From NCBI GenBank assembly GCA_040756875.1, contig JBFLYH010000003.1, positions 32,001 to 96,000 of the forward strand: DNA of 64,000 nt, read 5' to 3'. The position numbers and the translations under genes are program-made. The notes beneath the pieces were generated by a model that did no database searches, was not told the DNA's origin, and saw only the letters and a list, made by a program, of their open reading frames with translations. This DNA is from a candidate division FCPU426 bacterium. GTDB lineage: Bacteria; Oederibacteriota; JAAXVQ01; JAUVAV01. Below are positions 1-18,467 of this stretch, one piece after another. The number at the start of each line of letters is the position of its first letter. Position 1 is the first letter of the stretch.

Positions 1-660
1 GCTCCGCGGTTTGAATCCCATCCAACGGTGCCGGCCGGCCTTGCCGATGGTGATGTTTTCGTGCTCCAGGTTGCCGACCTGCCCGACCGTGGCCTGGCAA
101 TCCAGGTGGATCAGGCGCATTTCGCCCGAAGGCAGGCGGACGTGGGCATACTCGCCCTCCTTGGCCAGGAGCTGGGCATTGCTGCCGGCGGCGCGCACCA
201 GACGGGCCGGGCTGTCGAGCTTGACTTCGATGTTATGGATCAGCTCGCCCACCGGAATTTTCCGCAAGGGCAGGGTGTTTCCCAGCTGGATGTCGGCTTC
301 CGGCCCGGACAGGACCATGGTGCCGACCTTCAGGTTGTTGGGCGCCACGATATAACGTTTTTCGCCGTCCGCGTAATGCAGTAAAGCGATGCGGGCCGTG
401 CGGTTCGGGTCGTACTCGATGGAGACGACGCGGGCCGGGACGCCCGGCTTGTTCCGCATAAAGTCGATCACGCGGTACCGGCGCTTGTGGCCGCCTGACT
501 TGCGGCGGGCCGTATAGCGTCCGTAGCCGTTGTGCCCGCCGCTGCGCGGGCTGGGACGCAGCAGGGACTTCTCCGGCTGGGTGCGCGTCAGTTCCGAAAA
601 GTCGTACCCCGTCATCTGCCGGCGGCCCGGGCTCGTGGGGCGATAGGATTTAACGGGCAT
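1..660 (-). CDS. rplB: 50S ribosomal protein L2 (3' end runs off the window)
   Basis: ATG at 660 reads [17 protein letters not shown]..., with later [13 protein letters not shown] motif; follows rplW in S10 operon order; not in the ORF track because the stop lies outside the window. Confidence 0.95.
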
Positions 661-694
661 GCATGCTCTCCTTTGGCGGCTCGTTTACCGGGCT

Positions 695-982
695 TTAAAC
701 GCCCTCGTAGACCTCGATGCGGTCCCCGGCTTTGAGGGTGGCAATGGCCTTGCGCCAGTTCCGCTTCGGAGTCACGTGCGCGCCGAACCTCCGGCTCTTG
801 CCGGGCACGGTGGTGGTGTTTACGCGCAGCACGGTCACCTTGAAAATGGTCTCGATCGCTTCCTTGATCTGCAGCTTGTTCGCCCGGGCGTCGACTTCGA
901 AGGCGTAGGCGTTGATGGCTTCCTTGGCGCGGTTGGTTTTTTCGGTCAACAGCGGCCGCCGGATGATCGTATAGGGGTTCAT
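695..982 (-). CDS. rplW: 50S ribosomal protein L23
   Basis: C-terminal 95 aa of ORF 695..1507 ([15 protein letters not shown]...WRKAIATL); ATG overlaps the rplD stop. Confidence 0.95.
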   Translation of the reverse strand: MNPYTIIRRPLLTEKTNRAKEAINAYAFEVDARANKLQIKEAIETIFKVTVLRVNTTTVPGKSRRFGAHVTPKRNWRKAIATLKAGDRIEVYEGV

Positions 983-1605
983 GCGTTCAACCTCTCTTCC
1001 AGCCGGTTTACCGCGTCGCGCGTCAGCAGCAAATGATCGCAGTTCACCAAATCGTAGGTATTGATGTTTTCCGGGTTCAGGATCCTCAGGGTGCCGATGT
1101 TCCGGCCGGAACGCCGCACGGTTTCGTCGGCCTGGGCCAGCACCATGGTGGTCTTGCCCGAGAGGTTGAGTTTCTGGAGAATGCCGGCCAACAACTTGGT
1201 CTTGATCTGGGCCAGCTTCAGTTCGTCCAGCACGACCACTTCTCCGTCCGCCACTTTGGCCGAAAGCGCCGACCGCAGGGCTTGCTGGCGCTGGCGCTGG
1301 GGCAGGAGCCAGGAATAGTCGCGCGGCTTGGGACCGAACACGGTTCCGCCTTTGTACCACAGCGGGGAACGGTTGCTGCCCGCGCGCGCCCGGCCGGTGC
1401 CCTTCTGCCGCCACGGCTTGGCGCCGCCGCCGCTGACCTCGCCCCGGGTTTTGGTGGAGGAGGTGCCGCGGCGCTTGTTGGCCAGGTGGCTTTGAACCGC
1501 TTCCCACAGCAGGTGTTTGTTGACTTTCGCACCGAATACTTTTTCCGATACGGTGACCTCACCGACCGGTTGATTTTCACGATTGACGATTTTAAGTACG
1601 GGCAT
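979..1605 (-). CDS. rplD: 50S ribosomal protein L4
   Basis: [15 protein letters not shown] motif; operon position. Confidence 0.97.
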
Positions 1606-1607
1606 GG

Positions 1608-2243
1608 CTACCGCTTCCCTCCCCGCCGGCTTTCACGCACCAGCACCAGATCCCGGTTGGCGCCGGGAATGGCGCCGCGAATCAGCAGCAATTTCTGCTC
1701 CGGATCCACTTTGACCAGCTTCAGCTTCATGGCGGTCACCCGTTCGTGGCCCATGTGCCCCGGCATTCCCAGGCCCTTGAGCACGCGTGAGGGGTCCGAG
1801 GAGGCGCCGATCGAACCGGGCGCGCGGTGGAACATGGAGCCGTGCGAGTTGCGTCCTCCGGTGAAATGATGGCGTTTGACCACGCCCTGATACCCTTTGC
1901 CCTTGGAAACCCCGACCACGTCCACCCACTGGACGTCCGCCAGGACTTCCGGCCCGAAGGTCTGCCCGACCGCAAACGAATCCTTGTCCGCCAGTTCCAG
2001 CTCCCGCAGGATGCGGAACGGCTTGAGATTGCGTTTGGTGAACTGCCCCAGCCGCGGTTTGGTGATCCGCCGGGGCTTCTGCTCTTCGTAGCCCACCTGA
2101 ATGGCAGCGTAGCCGTCCTGTTCCTTGGTCTTGACCTGGACCACTGTGCACGGTCCGGCCGAAACCACGGTGACTGGAACGGCGTGGCCGTTTTCGTCGA
2201 AGATCTGGGTCATGCCGATTTTCCTGCCGAGTATGCTTTTCAT
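1608..2243 (-). CDS. rplC: 50S ribosomal protein L3
   Basis: ILGRKIGMTQIF and SKGKGYQGVVKRH motifs; ATG at 2243 preferred over TTG at 2249. Confidence 0.97.
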   Translation of the reverse strand: MKSILGRKIGMTQIFDENGHAVPVTVVSAGPCTVVQVKTKEQDGYAAIQVGYEEQKPRRITKPRLGQFTKRNLKPFRILRELELADKDSFAVGQTFGPEVLADVQWVDVVGVSKGKGYQGVVKRHHFTGGRNSHGSMFHRAPGSIGASSDPSRVLKGLGMPGHMGHERVTAMKLKLVKVDPEQKLLLIRGAIPGANRDLVLVRESRRGGKR

Positions 2244-2273
2244 AGCCAATCCTCTTTTACAGGTCCCCGGGAC

Positions 2274-2582
2274 CTATAATTTGATCTCCACGTCGACGCC
2301 GGCCGGCAAATCCATCTTCATCAGGGCGTCGATGGTTTTGGCGGTCGGATCCACGATATCCAGCAGCCGCTTGTGCGTCCGGATCTCGAATTGTTCCCGC
2401 GATTTCTTGTCCACGTGCGGACTGCGCAACACGGTCACCCGGTTGATGCGGGTCGGCAACGGTACCGGCCCGAATACGCGCGCACCGGTCCTTTTGGCAG
2501 TCTCAATGACATCGGCCGCGGAACGGTCCAACAACTTGCTGTCGTAGGCCTTCATCCGGATGCGAATTTTTTGCTGCTGCAT
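2274..2582 (-). CDS. rpsJ: 30S ribosomal protein S10
   Basis: GPVPLPT and [14 protein letters not shown] motifs. Confidence 0.98.
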
Positions 2583-2601
2583 GGTGCCCTCCGCTCTCCC
2601 G

Positions 2602-3804
<1,203 letters not shown>

Positions 3805-3821
3805 GGAGTGGTCCTCCTCGA

Positions 3822-5912
3822 TTATTTGCCTTGCATTTTTGACACGACGGCTTCCGCGATGCTTTTCGGCACCTCGGCATAATGCGCGAACTGCATGGTA
3901 AAGGTCGCCCGTCCCTGGGTCATGGACCGCAGATCCGTGGCGTAACCGAACATTTCCGCCAACGGCACATGGCCGTGGACCACGTGCGTATTGCCTTTTT
4001 TATCGAGGCCTTCGATCCGGCCGCGGCGCGAATTCAGGTTGCCGAGCACGTCGCCCATGTAATCCTCCGGCGTGACGACTTCCAGGGCGAAGATGGGCTC
4101 CAGGAGCACCGGCTGGGCCTTGCGGCAGGCTTCCTTGAAAGCCATGGAGCCCGCGATTTTAAACGCCATTTCCGAGGAATCCACCTCGTGGTAAGACCCG
4201 TCGAACAGCGTTACTTTGCAATCCACCACCGGATAGCCCGCCAGCACGCCGCTCTGCAGCGCGTCCTGGATGCCCTGGTTCACCGGCTGGATGTATTCCC
4301 GCGGAATGCTGCCGCCGCGGATGGCATCCACGAATTCGTAGCCCTTGCCGTTTTCCATCGGTTCCAGCCGGATCCACACATGGCCGTACTGGCCGCGGCC
4401 GCCGGTCTGGCGGACGAACTTCCCTTCCTGCTCGACCGACTTGGAGATGGTTTCGCGGTAGGCCACCTGGGGCTTGCCCACGTTGGCTTCCACGTTGAAT
4501 TCCCGCAACAGCCGGTCCACGATGATTTCCAAGTGCAGTTCGCCCATGCCCCAGATCAGGGTCTGGCCGGTTTCCTCGTCGGTCCGGATCTTGAAAGTCG
4601 GGTCTTCCTCCGAGAGCCGCTGCAAGGCCGTGCCCAGTTTGTCCTGGTCCGCCTTGGTCTTGGGCTCGATAGCCACGGAGATCACGGGCGCCGGGAAGGA
4701 CATGGATTCCAGCACGATGGGCTGGGACTCATCCGCCAGGCTGTCGCCGGTGGTGGTGAATTTCAACCCCACCGCGGCCACGATGTCTCCCGCGGAGGCC
4801 GACTCGATCTCTTCGCGCTTGTTCGCGTGCATGCGCATGAGGCGGCCGATGCGCTCCCGTTTCTCCCGGGTGGAATTCAGGACGTGGTCGCCGGTGCTGA
4901 TTTGCCCCGAATAGACCCGGAAATACGTCAGTTTTCCCACATACGGATCGGACATGATCTTGAACGCCAGCGCGGCAAAAGGCGCCTTGGGGTTGGCCGG
5001 CCGGTTTTCGCGCACGTCCTTGCCCGGAATCTCTCCGGAAACCGGCGGGATGTCCGTGGGCGACGGCAAATAGTCGGCCACGGCATCCAGCAGCGGCTGG
5101 ATGCCTTTGTTCTTGAAAGCCGAGCCGCACAGCACCGGCACGATCTTGCCGGCCACCACGGCTTTGCGCAGCGTCCGTTTGATTTCCACGGGTGTCACGT
5201 CCTCGCCGGCCAGGAACTTCTCCAGCAGGTGGTCGTCGAAATCCGCCAGGGCCTCGATCAACTTCTCGCGTTGGGCGCGGGCGACGAAAAATTCCGTCTC
5301 GGCAATCTGCTCGTCGATCTCGTATTCCGCGCCCAGGGTCTCATCGTTCCACACCAGCTGTTTCATCTCGATGATGTCCACCAAGCCGCGGAACCCGCTT
5401 TCGCTGCCCACCGGGATCTGGATGGGCACCGCGCGCGCCCCCAGTTTCTCGCGGATGCTCTTGACCGATTGCATGAAATCCGCGCCGATCCGGTCCATCT
5501 TGTTGATGAACGCCAGCCGCGGCACGTTGTACTTGTCCGCCTGGCGCCAGACCGTTTCGGACTGGGGTTGCACTCCGCTCACGCCGTCAAAGACCGCCAC
5601 CGCACCGTCCAACACCCGTAGCGACCGCTCGACCTCGACCGTGAAGTCCACGTGGCCGGGCGTGTCGATGATGTTGATGCGGTGATGCTTCCAGAAGCAT
5701 GTGGTTGCGGCCGAGGTGATGGTGATGCCGCGCTCCTGCTCCTGGACCATCCAATCCATCGTGGCCGTCCCCTCGTGCACTTCGCCCAGCTTGTACAGCC
5801 GGCCGGAGTAAAAGAGGACACGCTCCGTGATGGTGGTTTTTCCCGCGTCAATGTGGGCCATGATCCCGATGTTCCGGGTCTTGGCCAAATCTACAGACTG
5901 AGGCGAACTCAT
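3822..5912 (-). CDS. fusA: Elongation factor G
   Basis: [29 protein letters not shown]; 696 aa. Confidence 0.99.
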
Positions 5913-5970
5913 GTGCTTATGCTCCCGAATGCCGTCCGCGGAATGTTGACCGGGACAGCCAGCCTTCGTC

Positions 5971-6441
5971 CTACCAGCGATAATGGGCGAAGGCTTTATT
6001 GGCCTCAGCCATCTTGTGGGTATCTTCCCGTTTTTTGACTGCCGCGCCCTGGTTGGTGGCCGCTTCCATGAATTCGGCGGCCAGGCGCTCTTCCATGCTC
6101 TTGCCTTTGCGGGCGCGCGCGGCTTCCCGCAGCCAGCGGATGGCCAGGGACAGCTGGCGCTCCGGACGCACTTCCACCGGAACCTGGTAATTGGCTCCGC
6201 CCACGCGGCGCGACTTGACTTCCACCTGGGGCTTCACGTTGTCCAGCGCCTGTTTAAACGTGTTCAACGTGGGGTCCCCGGTTTTGGTTTTGATGATATT
6301 CAACGCGCCGTAAAAAATCTGTTCGGCGCGGCTCTTTTTTCCGCACTCCATGATGCAATTGATGAATTTCGTCACCACCGGACTGTTGAAACGGCCGTCC
6401 GGCTTGATTTCACGCTTGGCAGCACCCTTACGACGCGGCAT
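5971..6441 (-). CDS. rpsG: 30S ribosomal protein S7
   Basis: [15 protein letters not shown]-terminal [13 protein letters not shown]. Confidence 0.99.
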
Positions 6442-6473
6442 GAATTACCATCCTCCCTTGCGAAACGCCATGA

Positions 6474-6845
6474 CTACTTCGGCCGTTTGAGGCCGTATTT
6501 GGAGCGCCCTTGCTTGCGGTTTTGCACGCCCGCGGTATCCAAGGTGCCCCTTATAATATGGTAACGAACACCGGGCAGGTCCTTGACGCGGCCGCCGCGG
6601 ATCATCACGATCGAGTGTTCCTGCAGATTGTGCCCCTCGCCCGGTATGTAGCACGTCACTTCCATGCCGTTCACCAGGCGCACGCGGGCCACTTTTCGCA
6701 AAGCCGAATTGGGCTTTTTGGGCGTTACGGTATAGACCCTCAGGCACACTCCGCGCTTTTGGGGACAGCTGCGAAGGGCGGGAGAAGACGTTTTGCTGCG
6801 CAAGGTTTCGCGCCCTTTGCGGATCAACTGGTTGATGGTCGGCAT
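6474..6845 (-). CDS. rpsL: 30S ribosomal protein S12
   Basis: [27 protein letters not shown]. Confidence 0.99.
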
Positions 6846-6872
6846 GTGCGCCTCCCTTTCCTTTTTATCCTT

Positions 6873-6905
6873 AAAAACAAAAAAGACGGAAACATCCGTC
6901 TTTTT
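6873..6905 (-). terminator. Intrinsic terminator-like hairpin in the rpsL leader
   Basis: Minus strand AAAAAGACGGA-UGUU-UCCGUCUUUUUUGUUUUU, about 30 nt upstream of the rpsL ATG. Confidence 0.75.
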
Positions 6906-6915
6906 GGTCAGGACA

Positions 6916-7122
6916 AACCTGGGGTCCCGTTTGAGGGACCGATCCTGTAAGACCTGTACTCTGGGAAGACCTTCGCCCCGGCTTTCCGGCTAAGGGACGT
7001 GGTTTCTTCGAACGCCGTCCGTCCATGTAAAATGGACGGACGACAACCAACGCGAGCCTCCCGCGTACAAACGGATGCTGCCACCGTCTCGCCACTCACT
7101 TGCAGTGGTTATGTCTCAGGCC
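6916..7122 (-). ncRNA. Candidate structured cis-regulatory leader (attenuator) of the str/S10 operon
   Basis: Several nested complementary segments between a sigma70 promoter and a terminator; see findings. Confidence 0.6.
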
Positions 7123-7135
7123 AAAAAGAGAAATG

Positions 7136-7165
7136 AGTATATGTTATTAACTTAAAAACTGTCAA
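7136..7165 (-). promoter_or_regulatory. sigma70-type promoter upstream of the rpsL leader
   Basis: TTGACA-N18-TATACT on the minus strand in AT-rich DNA just after the rpoC stop. Confidence 0.7.
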
Positions 7166-7174
7166 GCGGTAATT

Positions 7175-11272
<4,098 letters not shown>

Positions 11273-11298
11273 TTTTTCTCCAAAGCCGCCCTCGACTC

Positions 11299-15126
<3,828 letters not shown>

Positions 15127-15212
15127 GCAGTCTCCTCCTTGCCCCACGGTCTGTAGAAAACAAACAAATAATGTAATAAAGGGTGTACGAGAAAGGGAAA
15201 AACAGAAATGTA

Positions 15213-15272
15213 AGGATAAAATATTTCGATGGCCTTTGTCAACCCTAAATTTATTTTTTTTTGCTTTTTTTA
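15213..15272 (-). promoter_or_regulatory. sigma70-type promoter with UP-like A tracts for rpoBC
   Basis: TTGACA (15237-15242)-N18-TATCCT (15213-15218), preceded by A-tracts. Confidence 0.6.
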
Positions 15273-15298
15273 TACCCGGCAGCCAGTGAGGAGGGGGC

Positions 15299-16039
15299 TC
15301 AGCCGGCCAGGACCTTCAATCCCCGGGAGCGCAGCTTCCGGGCGACCCTGGCCCAGAGGGCCCGGGACGGCGGTTTCAGGGTTTGCAGGGGGTAGGCCAG
15401 CCCCAATTCCCGCCATTTATGCACGCCCAAGCGGTGGTACCCGATCAGCTCGACCGGGGGTGTGTTTTCCAAGCTCAGCGCATAGTCCGACAATCCGTCG
15501 ATTTCTTCGGCGGAATCGTTCATTCCCGGCAGCAACACCCGTCTAAGCACCAGGCGGCCGGGAACCCGGGCCGCCTGGCGGCCGAACGCCAGCACCGGAG
15601 CCAGAGGCTGCCCGGTTAGCGAGCGGTGCAGTGCTTCTCGGCTGGCTTTAATGTCCAGCAGGACCACGTCGGTTTCAGCCAAAATCCGTTCGGCCGCGGC
15701 CGGCTTGCAGCTGCCGTTGGTATCCAGGGCGGTATTCAGTTTCAAATCATGGGCAATTTTAAACAAGCCGATCACGAAATCCGCCTGCAGGGTCGGTTCC
15801 CCGCCGGAAACAGTCACGCCGCCGCCGTGCTGGCGCAAATAGGGGGTCAACGGCTCCAGCCGGGCGCGGGCCTCGGCCAGGGTCATGCGGCCCGAAGCCC
15901 GGATGGACCACGTGTCCGGGTTCTGGCAGTACTGGCAGCGGAAGTTGCATCCGGCCAGAAAGAAGACGCAGCGCAGTCCCGGCCCGTCGCGGGTGCCGAG
16001 GGTTTCGACGGAATGCACGCGGCCAATGATGTTTTTCAT
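15299..16039 (-). CDS. pflA: Pyruvate formate-lyase activating enzyme (radical SAM)
   Basis: DGPGLR and [14 protein letters not shown] (CxxxCxxC); [10 protein letters not shown]; downstream of pflB. Confidence 0.95.
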
Positions 16040-18344: not shown

Positions 18345-18392
18345 AAGAAAAAAGCCCGGACCACCGCTCAGGAAATGAGCGGAAGCCCAGGC
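18345..18392 (-). terminator. Riboswitch expression-platform terminator
   Basis: GCCUGGGC...CCGCUCA-UUUCC-UGAGCGG...UCCGGGC followed by UUUUUUCUUU; its 5' arm overlaps the aptamer 3' end. Confidence 0.7.
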
Positions 18393-18462
18393 GTTCGGCT
18401 TGATCACCCGCTTGACAGCCGTGTTCCCAGGTGGTGCTCCACCTTCGCCAGTCGCACGGCTT
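18385..18462 (-). ncRNA. ZMP/ZTP riboswitch (pfl motif)
   Basis: AGCCGUG-CGACUGGCGAA-GGUGG..CCACC-UGGGAA-CACGGCU, linker, then GCCGAACGCCUGGGC, matching the known pfl/ZTP consensus; lies directly upstream of pflB. Confidence 0.9.
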
Positions 18463-18467
18463 GATTC

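Follow-up and report, generated by a model that had tools for sequence, protein, structure and literature searches.

A conserved, structured leader and putative transcription attenuator upstream of the rpsL operon in a class of uncultured FCPU426 bacteria

The window analysed here is a stretch of 64,000 nucleotides from a candidate division FCPU426 bacterium (contig JBFLYH010000003.1, positions 32,001 to 96,000), and its subject is the 329-nt gap that separates the rpoC stop codon from the rpsL start codon on the minus strand, which holds a promoter, a leader and a terminator. NCBIfam models score above their curated cut-offs for the beta' subunit on the rpoC side and for S12, S7, EF-G, EF-Tu, S10, L3 and L4 downstream; together with the gene order these names identify the element as the 5' untranslated region of a ribosomal protein (r-protein) operon. 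From rpsL onwards the intergenic spacers measure 32, 58, 17, 19, 24 and 2 nt, and with spacers of only 2-58 nt the genes therefore read as one long operon, rpsL-rpsG-fusA-tuf-rpsJ-rplC-rplD and so on, which continues past the window edge. Within it rpsJ begins 19 nt after tuf, which leaves the S10 operon without a separate leader. A preliminary description, made from the sequence alone, had proposed for this site a large leader that switches between a terminator and an antiterminator.

The sigma-70-type promoter that had been read as TTGACA-N18-TATACT is present (7165..7136), with 11 matches out of 12, and begins 10 nt past the rpoC stop codon. In a consensus scan it is the sole promoter-like site within 6400-7600 and one of only two in positions 1-16000, and a TTGACA-17/18-TATA(A/C)T promoter is found in all 16 of the related leaders described below. 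The transcription start, at about 7129, is placed from the promoter position. The terminator had likewise been located correctly, just before rpsL: the hairpin AAAAAGACGGA-UGUU-UCCGUCUUUUU with its U-run (6905..6880) is the single minus-strand terminator-like site in 6400-7600, and its U-tract is broken by one G. It ends 33 nt before rpsL, and in the 14 leaders measured the corresponding distance to the start codon is 23-93 nt. The consensus scan gave no match to a separate rpsL promoter after the terminator (6843..6872), where there is also no room for one. With a terminator before rpsL, no other promoter and tight gene spacing, expression of the operon must therefore pass the terminator.

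The 258-nt RNA from 7130 to 6873 has a minimum free energy (MFE) of -107.7 kcal/mol, compared with -84.7 +/- 5.1 kcal/mol for shuffled sequences (z = -4.5), and none of 200 shuffles folds as well. This value, and covariation across the 16 sequences, uphold the earlier view of a strongly structured leader. The comparison predicts that helices P3, P4 and P5 meet in a three-way junction whose purine-rich joining strand is invariant; this junction stacks under P2, and P6 and the terminator come after it (Table 1). Several elements of this fold had been noted before. The stems GUAC/GUAC (P2) and GGGAGG/CUUCCC (P3), the long hairpin at 7044-7014 (P4) and the hairpin GGUCCC-UCAAAC-GGGACC, which forms the tip of P6, are supported by the 16 sequences, and CCGG-AAAG-CCGG turns out to be the tip of the covarying P5. 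Other suggested pairings fell away in the alignment. The closing stem GGCCUG/CAGGUU and the stems AUCCGU/ACAGGAU and UGGUU/AACCA are all complementary in this genome and not conserved; the MFE structure pairs GGCCUG with CAGGUC, and the conserved fold pairs ACC with GGU and CAGGA with UCCUG.

Table 1. Features of the rpoC-rpsL intergenic region and flanking genes, in window coordinates.
Feature	Position	Strand	Description
rpoC open reading frame	7175..11302	minus	stop codon 7177-7175
Sigma-70-type promoter	7136..7165	minus	TTGACA 7165-7160, 18-nt spacer, TATACT 7141-7136; 11/12 matches
Variable 5' segment	7080..7130	minus	inferred start (~7129) to conserved core; hairpin CCACU/AGUGG 7108-7092; CUCUUUUU at 5' end
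5' strand AGCAUCCGUUU	7069..7079	minus	core CAUCCGU 7077-7071; proposed 5' strand of the antiterminator (P1); near-invariant
Sensor domain	6956..7068	minus	P2 and the P3/P4/P5 three-way junction
P2	7068-7065 with 6959-6956	minus	GUAC with GUAC; 98.4% paired, 1 compensatory pair
P3	7062-7057 with 6968-6963	minus	GGGAGG with CUUCCC; 100% paired, changes one-sided only
P4, long hairpin	7014..7044	minus	GUCGUCCGUCCAU, loop UUUAC, AUGGACGGACGGC
Junction strand GAAGAAACC	7001..7009	minus	purine-rich, invariant; J4/5 and first 3 nt of P5
P5	6969..7003	minus	ACC-A-CGUCCC ... GGGGCG-AA-GGU; variable tip, here CCGG-AAAG-CCGG
P6, composite hairpin	6909..6947	minus	CAGGA 6947-6943 with UCCUG 6913-6909; inner GGUCCC-UCAAAC-GGGACC 6940-6923
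Intrinsic terminator	6873..6905	minus	A-tract 6905-6901; GACGGA 6900-6895 with UCCGUC 6890-6885; loop UGUU 6894-6891; U-tract 6884-6873
Spacer, Shine-Dalgarno (SD) and start codon	6843..6872	minus	SD GGGAGG 6856-6851; rpsL start 6845-6843
rpsL open reading frame	6474..6845	minus	start ATG 6845-6843; TIGR00981, 227.8 bits

A similarity search of 60 relatives returned patches of this leader in the genome of the same genus as well as in 10 of 10 genomes of the family and 4 of 4 of its sister family; two further weak matches cover the terminator only and lie elsewhere. The patches stand directly upstream of rpsL in 15 genomes of the two families and align as a series of blocks, namely the promoter, CAUCCGU-(N)-GUAC-NN-GGGAGG, GAAGAAACC-N-CG, CG-AA-GGUCUUCCC-ANA-GUAC and the nearly invariant AAAAAGACGGAUGUUUCCGUCUUUUUU, with variable stretches between them. 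A covariance model built from 15 upstream sequences finds one copy per genome, directly 5' of rpsL and at 142-170 bits, in every one of the 15 genomes of the order, which make up the whole class in our collection, while the best score among the other 84 genomes of the phylum is only 38.2 bits. A weak match beside rpsL in G018 (26.7 bits) was discarded as the terminator alone, with the core absent. A stricter pattern scan of metagenome contigs gave five loci (L184-L188). L184 is a new, AT-rich copy 5' of rpsL that scores 126.6 bits; L185 and L188 have the scores of G003 and G011 and are apparently identical to them, and L186 and L187 were rejected as chance matches in apparent coding sequence. 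A loose pattern scan of the genome contigs, with 18 specified bases, contained no true match among the 80 matches listed. The set of 16 sequences used throughout consists of the 15 class genomes and L184, with L185 to L188 left out.

In all 16 copies rpsL lies directly downstream on the same strand, and no other gene context occurs, whereas the 3' end of rpoC is found upstream in only 10 of the 16 loci; the leader thus tracks rpsL and not rpoC. By this comparison, which covers the leader's own phylum and implies no absence from other phyla, it is a clade-specific leader. The inspection of rpsL upstream regions in relatives that the preliminary description had recommended has yielded a conserved, covarying leader in 16 sequences.

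Two alignments support the fold. A structure-blind MAFFT alignment analysed with RNAalifold recovers P2, P3, P5 and the terminator, with compensatory changes in 8 pairs and a P5 consensus of ACC-N-CGNNNN with NNNNCG-NN-GGU. In the 16-sequence alignment, which was fitted to the covariance model and is biased to structure accordingly, the MAFFT/RNAalifold alignment being independent of it, the 30 pairs of P2, P3, P5 and the terminator are 99.4% paired, compared with 46-56% for slid partners. Compensatory changes occur in 7 of these 30 pairs (4 in P5, 1 in P2 and 2 in the terminator), a number reached by 0 of 500 shuffles. The nine pairs of P5, interrupted by a conserved 1x2 internal loop, are 99.3% paired. 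The terminator is near-invariant across the two families; its 11 pairs are 99.4% paired, and its two compensatory changes take A-U to G-C in G007 and G009.

The joining strand reads GAAGA(A/U)ACC in every one of the 16 sequences. An alternative to P3 in which GAAGA would pair with UCUUC is kept as no more than a possibility, as it appears in the MFE structure of one of the 16 sequences and is energetically worse in 13; the columns concerned are all invariant, and covariation is therefore uninformative on that pairing. The parts around this core vary. Between P3 and the GAAGAA strand, P4 is a stable hairpin of variable length in 16/16 sequences (-8.3 to -26.8 kcal/mol), and a hairpin at the place of P6, between P2 and the terminator, is equally universal (-3.3 to -19.9 kcal/mol), the sequences being unrelated in both; the outer stem of P6 was assigned by comparison with the same-genus relative. 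In the 5' segment the hairpin CCACU/AGUGG is genus-specific, and the segment is nearly missing in G002, G008 and G010, where the core lies about 11 nt past the inferred start. These observations establish a real, conserved and structured leader with a terminator.

No RNA family in Rfam 15 matches the leader at the gathering score, the window's sole match being a ZTP riboswitch that serves as a positive control, and at E <= 10 the region 6780-7260 gives only five noise matches, mostly on the terminator. The earlier statement that the leader does not match the TPP, SAM, T-box, c-di-GMP, 6S or SRP consensus sequences is thus borne out at both thresholds, and the lack of a match extends to rpsL_psuedo and rpsL_ricks, the two rpsL leaders in Rfam. 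The leader has no match to 6S RNA (RF00013), and the genome's own 6S RNA lies elsewhere (G000:C1:1490424-1490602, 66.8 bits); SRP RNA, the T-box and the remaining Rfam families were likewise rejected for want of a match. A leader-peptide attenuator was also set aside: in the six of 16 leaders examined, the reading frames after the SD-like GGGAGG are not conserved, with 59 and 20 codons within one genus, no frame in one leader and a single codon in two.

The switch that had been proposed turns on an 11-bp pairing of 7079-7069 with 6901-6891, and this pairing is present, with nine Watson-Crick and two G-U pairs. Its 3' strand, AGACGGAUGUU, is at the same time the 5' arm and loop of the terminator, so that P1, as we call the pairing, and the terminator are mutually exclusive. 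Across the 16 sequences the core complementarity, CAUCCGU with ACGGAUG, leaves 91.2% of cells paired, compared with 43-50% when the strands are slid, and in 15 of them the terminator arm comes first when about 150 windows are ranked by their duplex with the 5' strand. The part of the earlier proposal that concerns complementarity therefore stands; support from compensatory changes it did not gain. P1 would close a second three-way junction (P1/P2/P6) around the sensor domain. Its 3' strand leaves the polymerase before the 3' arm of the terminator, and the outcome therefore hinges on the availability of the 5' strand at this point. Comparison of the two conformers of the full leader, which had also been recommended, favours the terminator state by 2-14 kcal/mol in 14 of 16 sequences and puts the two states about level in the remaining two; with the terminator state mostly favoured, the outcome would be set by kinetics or by a factor. 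Across the two families P4 and P6 have completely diverged, while the sequence of the 5' strand and of both terminator arms is frozen, which suggests two partners for the 5' strand and, in addition, its direct recognition. We found no RNA anti-antiterminator that masks the 5' strand, the AUCCGU/ACAGGAU partner being unconserved.

Very probably the leader acts in cis, as an attenuator of the translation operon. In more specific terms we favour, with moderate confidence and on comparative grounds, a transcription attenuator of the rpsL-rpsG-fusA-tuf-rpsJ-rplC-rplD operon that is probably fed back by a ribosomal protein encoded in the operon; that switching occurs, its direction and its effector are what we infer. 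Transcription would start at the leader's own strong promoter, and the RNA would fold P2 into the P3/P4/P5 junction and then P6, after which the polymerase would meet the terminator. Pairing of CAUCCGU with ACGGAUG to form P1 would close the domain, block the terminator and permit read-through; with the 5' strand held elsewhere, the terminator would form and the operon would be off. The choice would be set by a trans-acting factor that recognises the invariant junction core and the 5' strand, and the likeliest factor would be an r-protein of the operon (S7, L4 or S10, by precedent in other bacteria), which would give negative feedback.

Several observations weigh against this reading. None of the 11 pairs of P1 shows a compensatory change; all changes are one-sided and mostly transitions to G-U, and a shuffle control is uninformative here, both strands being conserved. 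Twelve sequences have letters in both columns of the outermost pair, U 7071-A 6900, and 5 of these 12 have lost it. In G007 and G009, where a terminator stem pair has gone from A-U to G-C, the 5' strand has changed to a non-complementary A, and in G013 a G-G mismatch lies inside P1, with the terminator arm only third among the partners. The 16 sequences are moreover kin, and their conserved complementarity is therefore not independent evidence. On the side of the effector, a protein that stabilised the domain including P1 would activate the operon and not repress it, unlike feedback. Mimicry of ribosomal RNA (rRNA) is not apparent either in a k-mer comparison, in which the leader has about as many 7- and 8-mers in common with the 16S and 23S rRNA of this genome as expected by chance. 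The stretch CGGUGGCAGCAU, which had been put forward as a weak hint of S7 autoregulation for its likeness to 16S rRNA, is found in this genome only, and the same-genus relative already differs.

One coincidence with 23S rRNA may be recorded separately. At about 2170-2195 of the 23S rRNA (L220) CAGAGTAC is followed 16 nt on by AGACGGA, and the leader has the same order, CAGAGUAC ... AGACGGA. The matches of CAGAGTAC and AGACGGA to 23S rRNA are each alone at chance level; as a pair, CAGAGUAC and AGACGGA might be a lead to mimicry of a 23S site.

A metabolite or alarmone riboswitch would account for much of the same architecture, with a small molecule (a nucleotide, alarmone, polyamine or ion) binding the junction core, stabilising P1 and giving ligand-dependent read-through. 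Its two nested three-way junctions lend the leader an aptamer-like complexity, about 46 columns are invariant in 15 sequences and concentrated in or around the junction, and the terminator state is the default in 14 of the 16 sequences, as in a ligand-activated ON switch. However, no known riboswitch class in Rfam 15 matches, all 16 copies control the same r-protein operon and nothing metabolic, the distribution within the phylum sampled is restricted to one small class, and much of the conservation lies within helices (P3 and the terminator) and not in loops. By the criteria set out in the relevant passages of PMC11109978, which report an rpsJ motif in Peptostreptococcaceae and define "ribosomal leader candidates", our element falls into that category, and we regard a riboswitch as unlikely. 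The wider suggestion that the leader senses translational capacity directly and is not a classical r-protein operator, be it an alarmone or small-molecule riboswitch or a sensor of free 30S subunits, we judge quite unlikely. In its 30S form P3 would act as a look-alike of the SD/anti-SD helix, GGGAGG (identical to the SD of rpsL) being paired with CUUCCC; an idle 30S subunit would take up GGGAGG, unzip P3 and P2 and free the 5' strand from P1, and the terminator would form. The unrelated leader of a sister family, described below, also has a conserved CCUCC/GGAGG helix.

Regulation could also dispense with a junction ligand altogether, as in an attenuator governed by general factors, with NusA or NusG acting at the hairpin, NusB and S10 on a boxA-like stretch near the 5' end, or sensing of nucleoside triphosphates or growth rate. 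The extreme 5' end of the leader RNA is the pyrimidine-rich CUCUUUUU, and a CUCYUU-type motif occurs in the first ~12 nt of most leaders (by eye; here 7121-7130, minus strand). The rRNA leader and spacer of this genome carry the boxA-like motifs GGUCUUUGAAAAC and CGUUCUUUGAC, which the 5' CUCUUUUUGG of our leader resembles without matching, the spacing being different in this comparison, made by eye only. S10 (NusE) is encoded in the operon, short leaders of sister families have a clearer boxA-like element complementary to the terminator, and boxA elements stand upstream of rpsJ-containing operons in some Gammaproteobacteria, according to the part of PMC5725501 that treats them. Yet general factors would leave a conserved, covarying domain of about 110 nt unexplained, and the 5' pyrimidine motif is loosely conserved and spaced unlike the rRNA motifs, so that we hold this explanation to be distinctly improbable. 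Least probable is an independent small RNA (sRNA) gene that acts in trans and is merely located between rpoC and rpsL. It would have a strong promoter of its own and a good terminator, and terminated transcripts of about 250 nt would accumulate in any case; but rpsL has no other promoter and starts 33 nt past the terminator, the element is attached to rpsL in 16 of 16 copies, even where rpoC is not adjacent, and it is neither 6S RNA nor a match to any sRNA in Rfam, all of which makes such a gene very unlikely.

The attenuator that we favour has clear parallels in mechanism. In the S10 leader of E. coli the r-protein L4 exerts control, and an r-protein chooses there between termination and read-through; the L20 (infC) and L10 (rplJ) leaders of Bacillus subtilis follow the same logic. 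The terminator hairpin of the E. coli S10 leader is itself part of the recognised structure, and recognition of this kind would explain a terminator conserved in sequence. The likeness to the S10, L20 and L10 leaders is one of mechanism, with no homology expected. In the pbuE adenine riboswitch the 3' strand of P1 is the 5' arm of the terminator, and a stable P1 leads to read-through. Our leader shares this arrangement, whereas its P1 bridges about 190 nt and takes in the terminator loop, and no purine-riboswitch match is found.

As a kind, the element is already known. The main text of Naville and Gautheret (2010; PMC2965389) describes attenuators with alternative antiterminators in rpsL leaders as "multiform", widespread and structurally diverse; leaders of different clades share no feature there, S7 is suspected as the partner, and an earlier prediction by Merino and Yanofsky of rpsL attenuators in 24 species is cited. 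Like those leaders, ours stands immediately ahead of rpsL and the str operon, has a terminator before the start codon and is clade-specific in structure, and its complementary 5' strand is a candidate for the alternative antiterminator predicted there. Compared with them by text and legend it is much larger, with six helices and two nested three-way junctions, and it differs from the Rfam families, the two rpsL leaders included, in giving no match at E <= 10 within 6780-7260; thus, as far as that text and Rfam go, the architecture matches no catalogued family. A literature search of main texts found no prior description of the motif. The sections of PMC10931766 on the E. coli str operon place the S7 operator in the rpsL-rpsG spacer, where it acts on coupled translation, and name S7 as the one feedback regulator of rpsL, rpsG and fusA known from experiment. 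The operon is the same in our case, but the spacer element of E. coli contrasts with a 5' leader that carries a terminator, and the rpsL-rpsG spacer here is 32 nt, without the extended structured spacer of an E. coli-type S7 operator.

In 20 genomes of other families of the phylum (L199-L218) the rpsL upstream regions contain a promoter-like site and sequences unrelated to this leader, and most of them hold a leader that ends in a U-tailed terminator. About 250 nt upstream of rpsL were compared at 13 loci of two families (L199-L203, L205-L207, L209, L210, L212, L216 and L218), and all 13 share a second conserved leader. Its promoter has TTGACC, it contains a CCUCC/GGAGG helix, and its terminator, GGCAAAGGCGG-AGCUCA-CUGUCUUUGCC, hardly varies and is placed 27-92 nt before rpsL. 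As read by eye, 10 of the 13 have an upstream GUGAGC box complementary to the loop of this terminator, one of them as a compensatory pair, GCGAGC/GCUCGC. In further families (L204, L211, L213, L214, L215 and L217) short leaders of about 100 nt follow a strong TTGACA promoter and contain, as judged by eye, a boxA-like element of the GCUCUUUUUAAC type, whose pyrimidine run is complementary to the 5' arm and loop of the terminator; these could be Nus-factor or S10-linked attenuators. Rfam gave no match in the 10 such loci scanned, 5 of which are among the 13 loci of the second leader. As partly independent replicates of an upstream box that pairs with a terminator arm or loop, these leaders lend some support to the attenuator logic. 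Three unrelated leader architectures, each equipped with a promoter and a terminator, thus occupy the same site in one phylum, and the sensor domain therefore appears to have been replaced repeatedly while the attenuator logic was kept.

If the attenuator model is true, transcription of no fewer than nine essential translation genes in an uncultured bacterial class is gated by a single RNA of about 250 nt; they include those of S12, S7, EF-G, EF-Tu, S10, L3 and L4 and others past the window edge. It would be an unusually elaborate and well-defined addition to the rpsL leaders, which are poorly understood and, according to the main text of PMC2965389, have no experimentally proven effector. The rpsL leaders of the phylum offer a compact system for regulatory-RNA turnover, and the invariant junction and the frozen terminator are clear targets for protein-RNA binding studies.

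Some further observations concern the surroundings of these leaders. The upstream sequences L199-L218 all end in TTG at the first aligned rpsL residue, and the present class has ATG. In most relatives of our leader (for example L003, L004, L005 and L018) an extra hairpin, GC-rich and lacking a U-tract, stands between terminator and SD; it is absent from this window, G003, G005 and L184 and could be a processing or stabilising hairpin. Elsewhere in the window, the ZMP/ZTP riboswitch aptamer mentioned above lies at 18378-18465 on the minus strand and scores 59.3 bits against an Rfam gathering score of 39. The second promoter-like site within 1-16000 is found at 15213-15242 on the minus strand (TTGACA-18-TATCCT), just 5' of the rpoB start region, and rpoB may have a leader of its own.

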